A DNA stretch of 64,000 nucleotides from a virus (lineage: Duplodnaviria; Heunggongvirae; Uroviricota; Caudoviricetes), in IMG/VR virus record IMGVR_UViG_3300012979_000001, positions 35,375-99,374 of that record; one strand, written 5' to 3'. A program made the translations under genes and the position numbers. The notes beneath the pieces were generated by a model. That model was given only the letters and a program-made list of their open reading frames with translations, did no database searches and was not told where the DNA came from. Below are positions 33,296-33,372 of the stretch, piece by piece (within the stretch, counting starts at the first letter, position 1; each line of letters starts with the position of its first letter).

Positions 33296-33372
33296 CAATA
33301 TTACCTGTGAATACCTGTAAGTACCTGTGAATACCTGTAGTTACCTATTTTGTATAATATGGGATACCTGTC
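33296..33372 (+). repeat. 10-bp-phased iterons TACCTGT(G/A)A, 5 copies plus 1 degenerate, overlapping promoter elements
   Basis: TACCTGT at 33302, 33312, 33322, 33332, 33365; TACCTAT at 33342; followed by TGTATAAT at 33351 and a TTGACA at 33373. Confidence 0.7.

Follow-up and report, generated by a model that had tools for sequence, protein, structure and literature searches.

What is the role of a run of short direct repeats, spaced 10 bp apart, in the non-coding DNA ahead of a phage zinc-finger gene? The repeats lie in a 64-kb stretch of DNA (hereafter the window, to which all coordinates refer unless a relative is named) from an uncultured low-GC phage of ~190 kb. GC content runs from 22 to 35% along the window, the genome as a whole being ~72% AT, and the genes found in the window include 20 tRNA genes, a split DnaE polymerase, a primase, RecJ, RecD2 and the phage's own sigma factor. 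The sigma factor (Sigma70_r2) is encoded inside the replication module, and DnaE is split into ORFs of 680 aa and 469 aa; the two features lie at 46503-47036 and 55754-59153. Related metagenomic contigs are 175-208 kb long, while an INPHARED DNA search with the region returned only tRNA matches and thus no close DNA relative among cultured phages.

The repeats are housed in a 505-bp non-coding gap, bounded by tRNA-Ser(GCT) at 32990-33080 and by the gene for a 164-aa protein at 33586-34080; no ORF of at least 40 aa overlaps 33296-33372. This tRNA is the last one ahead of the intergenic region and is a syntenic anchor in relatives, the closest of which is designated L016. The features of the locus are as follows.

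32990-33080, + strand: tRNA-Ser (GCT), found with ARAGORN and as Rfam tRNA; 100% identical in L016
33097-33125, + strand: P1, a perfect TTGACA-17-TATAAT promoter with TG (12/12 consensus matches); present in L016
33173-33245, + strand: two tandem intrinsic terminators (MFE -28.6 kcal/mol, fold z -5.05)
33256-33284, + strand: P2, ATGACA-17-TAAATT with TG ahead; resembles the core of P5 and is nearly identical in L016
33302-33351, + strand: array of five 10-bp units, TACCTGTGAA, TACCTGTAAG, TACCTGTGAA, TACCTGTAGT and TACCTATTTT
33351-33358, + strand: candidate P3, an extended -10-like box, TGTATAAT; any -35 box would fall inside unit 4
33365-33371, + strand: sixth TACCTGT copy, 63 bp (~six turns of 10.5 bp) past unit 1; abuts the P4 -35 box
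33373-33401, + strand: candidate P4, TTGACA-17-TAATGT, with its TTGACA box at 33373-33378
33528-33557, + strand: P5, TTGACA-18-TACAAT with TG (11/12 matches), main promoter of the zinc-finger gene; conserved in relatives
33586-34080, + strand: Ros/MucR-type zinc-finger protein, 164 aa (Pfam PF05443 above cut-off)
34077-35042, + strand: ParB-like nuclease-domain protein, 321 aa (phrog_12305, E 8.7e-31; weak GmrSD_N)
35061-35258, + strand: Cys-rich protein, 65 aa (tblastn, gene tables), a conserved partner of the zinc-finger gene

The array is unique in the window and is not due to chance

Each unit of the array comprises a TAYCTG core and a 4-bp spacer. TACCTGT starts at 33302, 33312, 33322 and 33332, exactly 10 bp apart, followed by a degenerate TACCTAT at 33342 and by the sixth copy. 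All six copies listed in the original prediction are present, lie in non-coding DNA and form the sole phased cluster in the window; the helical phasing that it proposed also stands, since the 10-bp spacing is exact and relatives keep the phase. Units 1-2 and 3-4 make up a 20-bp super-repeat, and TRF detects a period-10 array of 3.7 copies as well as a higher-scoring period-20 array.

TACCTGT occurs exactly nine times on the two strands of the whole window, and five of the nine are in the array region. Same-strand pairs at 9, 10, 11, 20 or 21 bp with at most one mismatch are confined, within the 64 kb, to the array. We also simulated the window 200 times with a first-order Markov model and recorded how many copies of one 6-mer followed each other at 10-bp spacing: the maximum was 2 in 195 runs, 3 in 5 runs and never 4, which is the observed value. 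The array is not due to chance.

The core, phase and copy number are conserved in related phages

The comparative set consisted of 52 metagenomic homologues of the 164-aa protein, for many of which upstream DNA was recovered. Besides the window, five lineages have 4+1 units with a spacing of exactly 10 bp, on the same strand and at the equivalent place, and the adjacent Ros/MucR-type protein in the array-bearing lineages is 65-85% identical to that of the window. Their units, in order, are given below.

L016: TATCTG in three units, then TATCTA and TATTTA (zinc-finger protein 85% identical, gene ~84%)
L015, L034, L035 and L062: TATCTGTAGG, TAGCTGTAGG, TATCTGTAAA, TATCTGTACG and TATTTT
L017, L018 and L019: TATCT in four units, then TATTT
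L020: TATCTGAGAT, TATCTGAAAT, TATCTGAGAT, TATCTTAGAA and TATTTA
L059: TATCT in four units, then TATTT

By blastn, the flanking intergenic DNA is unalignable between array-bearing lineages. Among the 24 units compared, T1, A2, C4 and T5 are invariant, a pyrimidine stands at position 3 in 23 and G6 is found in 18, while positions 7-10 hold little information, the content being concentrated in positions 1-6. Conservation of the core alone, with free spacers, indicates what are probably base-specific protein contacts on one face of the helix. In L016 position 3 is T within the array and C in the sixth copy; given this mixture position 3 is simply degenerate, and no change in binding specificity is required.

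These features also bear on whether a protein is needed at all. The repeats could act as curved DNA, with 10-bp-phased bends upstream of a promoter aiding RNA polymerase in the manner of an UP element. In L017, L020 and L059 a strong promoter has the array at ~-105 to -55, which would suit such a role, as would the A-runs found in the spacers of several relatives. However, A-tracts would most easily satisfy selection for bending alone, and the units of the window have none; the conserved part is instead an uninterrupted 6-bp core that includes C and G, in a genome that is 72% AT, with spacers that drift, and in the window the array sits downstream of P2. We regard protein-independent curvature as distinctly unlikely.

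The divergence between the window and L016 is concentrated in the first half of the array. The stretch at 33283-33331 is the most divergent non-coding one between the two (65% identity), the DNA around it being 96-100% identical, and still the core and phase are kept. The 20-bp super-repeat, present in the window and in L020, implies that units are occasionally duplicated; the copy number nonetheless remains 4+1. A functionless minisatellite born of replication slippage would account for this super-repeat, for the loss of the array in some relatives and for the C-to-T decay seen in L035 and L062. Against it, six lineages with unalignable flanks agree in copy number, phase, orientation and position, and slippage would homogenise whole units, yet only the core is conserved. 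A neutral origin of this kind is very unlikely: the conserved core, phase and copy number argue that the array is probably under selection, and against both chance and a neutral minisatellite.

Constraint does not appear uniform. L035 and L062 carry C4-to-T changes in units 3-4, and among three 99% identical sequences within the L015 lineage the few substitutions cluster in units 3-4 and the following 60 bp. This suggests that constraint on the array may be relaxed or weaker in the L015 lineage.

Pattern scans outside the comparative set did not extend the family. An exact scan of IMG/VR for three TACCTGT at 10 bp gave 14 loci, none of them related, which we took as coincidence; one group consists of ~50% GC phages, and the remainder are microsatellites or giant-virus contigs. 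Scanning for four TATCT at 10 bp gave more than 120 unrelated loci, among which tblastn with all window ORFs found no relatives.

Position of the array relative to terminators and promoters

An intrinsic terminator precedes the array in every lineage that has one. In the window, the two strong hairpins that the original prediction had placed upstream are borne out by their stems (13 bp at 33173-33202 and a perfect 12 bp at 33211-33237), by a T-run after each and by the fold z-score. The array starts 9-14 bp past the terminator T-run in L015, L017, L020 and L059, with no promoter upstream there. P2, between terminator and array, is present in the window and L016 only. From the position of its -10 box we infer a P2 start near 33291, which would place the array at ~+11 to +57 of that transcript.

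Downstream, the next TTGACA comes 71 bp after the array start in the window and in L016, 69 bp after it in L017, and 67 bp after it in both L020 and L059. The post-array TTGACA promoter is the zinc-finger gene's own in L017, whereas in L020 and L059 the unit that it drives begins with a small Cys-rich ORF, the zinc-finger gene coming second; directly past the array of the L015 lineage there is no convincing promoter. P4 of the window is homologous in position to the strong post-array promoter of L017, L020 and L059. Between the P4 region and P5 lie ~130 bp of unstructured AT-rich DNA.

The original prediction had also noted an extended -10 followed by a TTGACA. Both boxes are present, but TGTATAAT is not conserved across lineages: it reads TGTAAAAT in L016, TGTATATT in L015, TGTGTGTT in L035 and TGTATGTT in L062, and is absent from L017, L020 and L059. 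Because TGTATAAT lies upstream of the TTGACA at 33373-33378, the -10-like and -35-like boxes cannot form one promoter. The arrangement of five units upstream and one copy downstream of the TGTATAAT box is found in the window and L016 only, as is the sixth copy itself (TACCTGC in L016).

Transcription from P2 raises the question of a role in RNA, in which five UACCUGU motifs would serve as binding sites, or as a sponge, for an RNA-binding protein or a small RNA. P2 would indeed transcribe the array in the window and L016, whereas the arrays of L015, L017, L020 and L059, so close behind a terminator, have no promoter to transcribe them. Moreover, periodicity of exactly 10 nt belongs to duplex DNA; the array region gave no RNA structure signal (fold z +0.44 and +1.26) and no Rfam match. 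We consider an RNA-level role exceedingly unlikely.

Two further RNA observations were made at this place. P1 would give a ~75-nt transcript that ends at the tandem terminators (33097-33245), a candidate small RNA; the transcribed stretch is 100% identical in L016, whereas the promoter spacer differs, and its only Rfam matches fall far short of the gathering scores (sRNA71, 23.9 bits, E 0.9; STnc390, 18.4 bits, E 0.75). In addition, a conserved structured RNA-like element, GGTTTGCACGTTT...AAAACGTGGTGC, lies immediately 3' of the last tRNA at L015 3653-3735, L016 72-150, L017 2194-2296, L057 307-386 and L059 1724-1802. Its consensus has 19 predicted pairs, with compensatory changes in 6 of the 19; it matches no Rfam family and is absent from the window.

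Loss of the array in relatives and the possibility of a replication origin

The homologous place holds no array in L021 and L057 and one TATCT only in L060/61, and the array is absent from all relatives whose protein is at most 60% identical, across loci of 1 to 6.4 kb. These array-less relatives still keep the zinc-finger gene and its promoter. The array is therefore dispensable, and the pattern of presence and absence implies that it was ancestral to the sub-clade and was lost at least three times. On sequence grounds, such a pattern fits an accessory regulatory site, which the array may be, better than a sole replication origin.

An origin was one of the two functions put forward in the original prediction. 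The units would then be iterons for a phage initiator, the adjoining AT-rich DNA would melt, and nearby transcription might help to activate the origin. Well-known iteron origins are those of lambda (ori/O), P1 (oriR/RepA) and T4 (oriE), and the locus shares with them a unique cluster of phased direct repeats in non-coding, promoter-rich DNA, with an AT-rich stretch (~33380-33430) just downstream; as the whole genome is ~72% AT, however, AT-richness is uninformative here. Iterons are usually 17-22 bp long, much longer than the 6-bp core of the array. There is no Rep gene near the array and no initiator-like gene adjacent to it, the neighbours being the Ros/MucR-type gene, the ParB-like gene and small ORFs; the genes for helicase, primase, DnaE and RecD2 are at 44-61 kb, 10-28 kb away. 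Cumulative GC skew climbs steadily, with no inflection at 33 kb. L021, L057 and L060/61 have also lost the array and show no comparable element at these loci, so that phased direct repeats are found here without adjacency to an initiator or replication module and without retention in all close relatives.

One lineage adds a point in favour of an origin: a perfect DnaA box, TGTGGATAA, stands 3 bp ahead of the L016 array. The box (L016 359-367) is the reverse complement of TTATCCACA, and the window has TATAGACAA at the same place; the perfect box being confined to L016, we did not favour DnaA involvement. Overall, an origin at this site is unlikely. Of the earlier description as repressor or initiator iterons, what survives is a predicted protein-binding array beside promoters, which is phased, unique and conserved; the origin part is weakened by the missing initiator and by the losses in relatives.

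Comparison with partition, packaging and regulatory sites

Direct repeats next to a promoter are also known from plasmid partition. In R1 parC, two sets of five 11-bp iterons flank the par promoter and act as ParR operators (PMC2241845). The present array resembles them in being a direct set of five tandem repeats, one helical turn apart, by the promoter of the downstream operon, and those of R1 are cooperatively bound (PMC2241845). It could thus be a centromere-like partition site doubling as an operator in the style of parC-ParR, and a ParB-like gene does lie downstream in the window, L016 and L018. It differs from parC, however, in its period (10 rather than 11 bp) and layout (five units, plus one, rather than 5+5 flanking the promoter), in the lack of ParM or ParR genes and in being dispensable in relatives. 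No ParA, ParM or TubZ-type NTPase and no small ribbon-helix-helix gene was found nearby, and 33586-36654 gave no Pfam or PHROG match to a ParM and ParR operon. As to ParABS, the repeats are direct and do not form a parS palindrome, no ParA was seen among the ORFs scanned, and the ParB-like gene is missing from most array-bearing loci. We rejected the ParB-like protein as a binder or centromere protein, as it occurs in just three array-bearing loci.

A small-terminase packaging site would be another unique cis element. Three TACCTGT at 10 bp do lie upstream of a putative large-terminase ORF in the unrelated ~50% GC phages, but no terminase gene was found among the window ORFs scanned. We judge a partition or packaging site highly improbable. 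In those ~50% GC phages (L003 8333-8359, also L004, L006-L010 and L014), three TACCTGTAGC at 10-bp spacing are followed by a TATATATATA tract, and a 627-aa ORF lies downstream, which we take from the look of its sequence to be the large terminase; the TACCTGTAGC repeats are possibly a packaging or regulatory site of these phages' own. Arm-type sites of an attP beside the tRNA were likewise rejected: the ORFs scanned include no integrase, and the tRNA, part of a cluster of 20, is encoded by an intact phage gene.

Among transcription factor sites, those of the OmpR/PhoB/WalR type are head-to-tail half-sites of 10-11 bp, arranged in 20-bp pairs at ~-100 to -40 of the promoter. The array has the same half-site geometry and a 20-bp super-period: it begins 67-71 bp before a -35 box in five lineages, and period 20 is favoured. 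No winged-helix response regulator was found among the phage ORFs scanned. The TGTGAA/TGTAAG spacers of the window resemble the WalR TGTWAH, but at 10-bp rather than 11-bp spacing, and they are not kept in relatives. We know of no consensus that matches the TAYCTG core.

Candidate binding proteins

The only DNA-binding gene that adjoins the array in every lineage is the Ros/MucR-type gene, and its product is our best candidate binder, an identification that we hold tentatively. The protein has an N-terminal CxxC-X10-CxxC, which is zinc-ribbon-like, and a Ros-type finger, CX2CX9HX4H; it aligns to Ros87, including these ligands, and has the Ros87 fold; its AlphaFold model has a pLDDT of 77.7. 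The Pfam match spans only profile positions 61-119, and the N-terminal oligomerisation region of MucR/Ros is lacking. A search of cultured phages gave no homologue with an E-value of 1e-3 or below.

[quoted passage not shown] The phage locus resembles this family in that the operon encodes a Ros zinc finger and a T-A step opens every unit, in a family that autorepresses via several sites and oligomerises. It differs in the N-terminal CxxC...CxxC of the phage protein and in its proposed target, as the known targets of the family are a 9-bp inverted-repeat ros-box or AT-rich sites loosely spaced at 30-50 bp, and direct repeats at 10 bp are not among them. The ros-box is absent from the locus; the T-A step is invariant, yet the units are direct repeats with a core that contains C and G. 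Site and gene do not strictly co-occur: L021, L057, L060 and all relatives of at most 60% identity have the gene but lack the array, so that the pairing is not obligatory. In architecture the array comes nearest to tandem operators such as R1 parC/ParR and to half-site arrays of the OmpR/PhoB type. It falls outside the ParMRC, ParABS and iteron-origin classes, and agrees in part with a Ros/MucR autoregulatory circuit.

The original prediction had named a zinc-finger and ParB-like operon. The zinc-finger gene is constant, but the ParB-like gene follows it only in the window, L016 and L018. The Cys-rich protein may act together with the zinc-finger protein or modulate it. It matched no Pfam family, and its ~60-aa homologues (L020 2247-2432, L059 2257-2433, L060 1050-1241) are encoded on either side of the zinc-finger gene; in L020, L059 and L060 the Cys-rich gene lies between the array promoter and the zinc-finger gene.

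A second binder proposed earlier, the product of 35628-36146 with three HTH domains, can be dismissed, as its gene belongs to an insertion found in the window alone and absent from L016, the closest relative that has the array. The insertion (35278-36146, ~870 bp) carries a 115-aa ORF as well as this 172-aa protein and looks like a mobile or recently acquired cassette. A full-length tmRNA is found just downstream of the zinc-finger gene in some relatives (L015 5103-5459 and L057 1620-1971; 149 and 131 bits); the window has no tmRNA, and the ParB-like gene and other ORFs occupy that place.

Other elements in the window and its relatives

The window also contains stereotyped promoters, in which an inverted repeat, TTGACAAAnnTTTGTCA, covers the -35 box and spacer and is followed by TGnTATAAT. 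Their -35 boxes are at 4612, 4983, 5694, 13833, 14490, 26223, 27486, 36669, 37051, 38124, 40504, 45829, 55513 and 62720 on the + strand and at 1383 on the - strand, and the same promoters are present in L015, L016, L021 and L057. The inverted repeat looks like a shared operator for a putative dimeric repressor, and because it recurs at module boundaries it may also serve as a substrate for modular gene shuffling.

A tttttCCAYCTRAC sequence often stands ahead of these promoters, with 5 of the 6 + strand copies of CCAYCTR at promoters. We rejected the idea that the array units are extra copies of CCAYCTRAC, since they have no CC and the shared 5-mer, AYCTR, occurs 484 times in the window; the resemblance is a weak lead only. 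An irregular (C/T)ATCT cluster at 14447-14489, with starts at 14448, 14456, 14466 and 14474 (8, 10 and 8 bp apart), lies directly upstream of the promoter at 14490.

A proposed regulatory site for the zinc-finger operon

The most likely reading of the phased array, given that relatives keep it, is that a transcription regulator docks there. We tentatively favour, at nearly even confidence, a role in transcription, as an operator or an upstream site for the promoter cluster that feeds the zinc-finger operon. Under this proposal, four strong TAYCTG sites and one weak site would lie head-to-tail on double-stranded DNA, one helical turn apart, and a regulator encoded by the phage would bind them cooperatively, with four or five of its protomers (or DNA-binding domains) on one face of the helix. 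The array would open a transcription unit directly past the terminators at the end of the tRNA block. Relative to the next sigma-A-type promoter, it would cover roughly -105 to -55 in most lineages; in the window it would in addition occupy ~+11 to +57 of P2 and cover the -35 region of the TGTATAAT box, and the sixth site would touch the P4 -35 box. Given this placement over promoters, occupancy would set the output of the cluster, either through repression by occlusion or roadblock or through action as an upstream site.

That a protein binds, which protein it is and in which direction it acts we infer from the arrangement described above. The most likely binder, less certain than the operator role itself, would be the Ros/MucR-type protein encoded just downstream, which would create an autoregulatory loop; given the precedent of the Ros/MucR family, a phased array that serves autoregulation is plausible. 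The role of binder could equally fall to a host factor.

A more specific form of the operator proposal is that the array may be a phased high-affinity loading site for an oligomer of the phage zinc-finger protein, the two forming a specificity pair that co-diverges. On that reading, the fast divergence of the array between the window and L016, with core and phase kept and the gene ~84% identical, would reflect the co-diverging pair. We consider this possible but doubtful.

The array is a real element of a fairly ordinary kind. If it is an operator, it would offer a precise and inexpensive experimental handle on early-operon control in an uncultured clade of large gut/rumen phages, which are ~190 kb in size and have many tRNAs and, in some relatives, a tmRNA; the handle would be a site of 50 bp in which the 6-bp core, the number of copies and their phase are all defined. 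To our knowledge, the Ros/MucR family has been studied only in alpha-proteobacteria. An operator bound by the phage protein would provide a defined DNA target for a Ros/MucR-type zinc finger outside that group, in a family whose targets have so far been loosely defined. Should the array instead be an origin, which the evidence makes less likely, it would show where replication starts in a group of phages whose DnaE polymerase is split. If the zinc-finger protein does load on the array as an oligomer, the array would be the family's first sequence-defined direct-repeat target and its first outside alpha-proteobacteria, and site and binder would form a pair analogous to phage immunity regions or plasmid incompatibility determinants.
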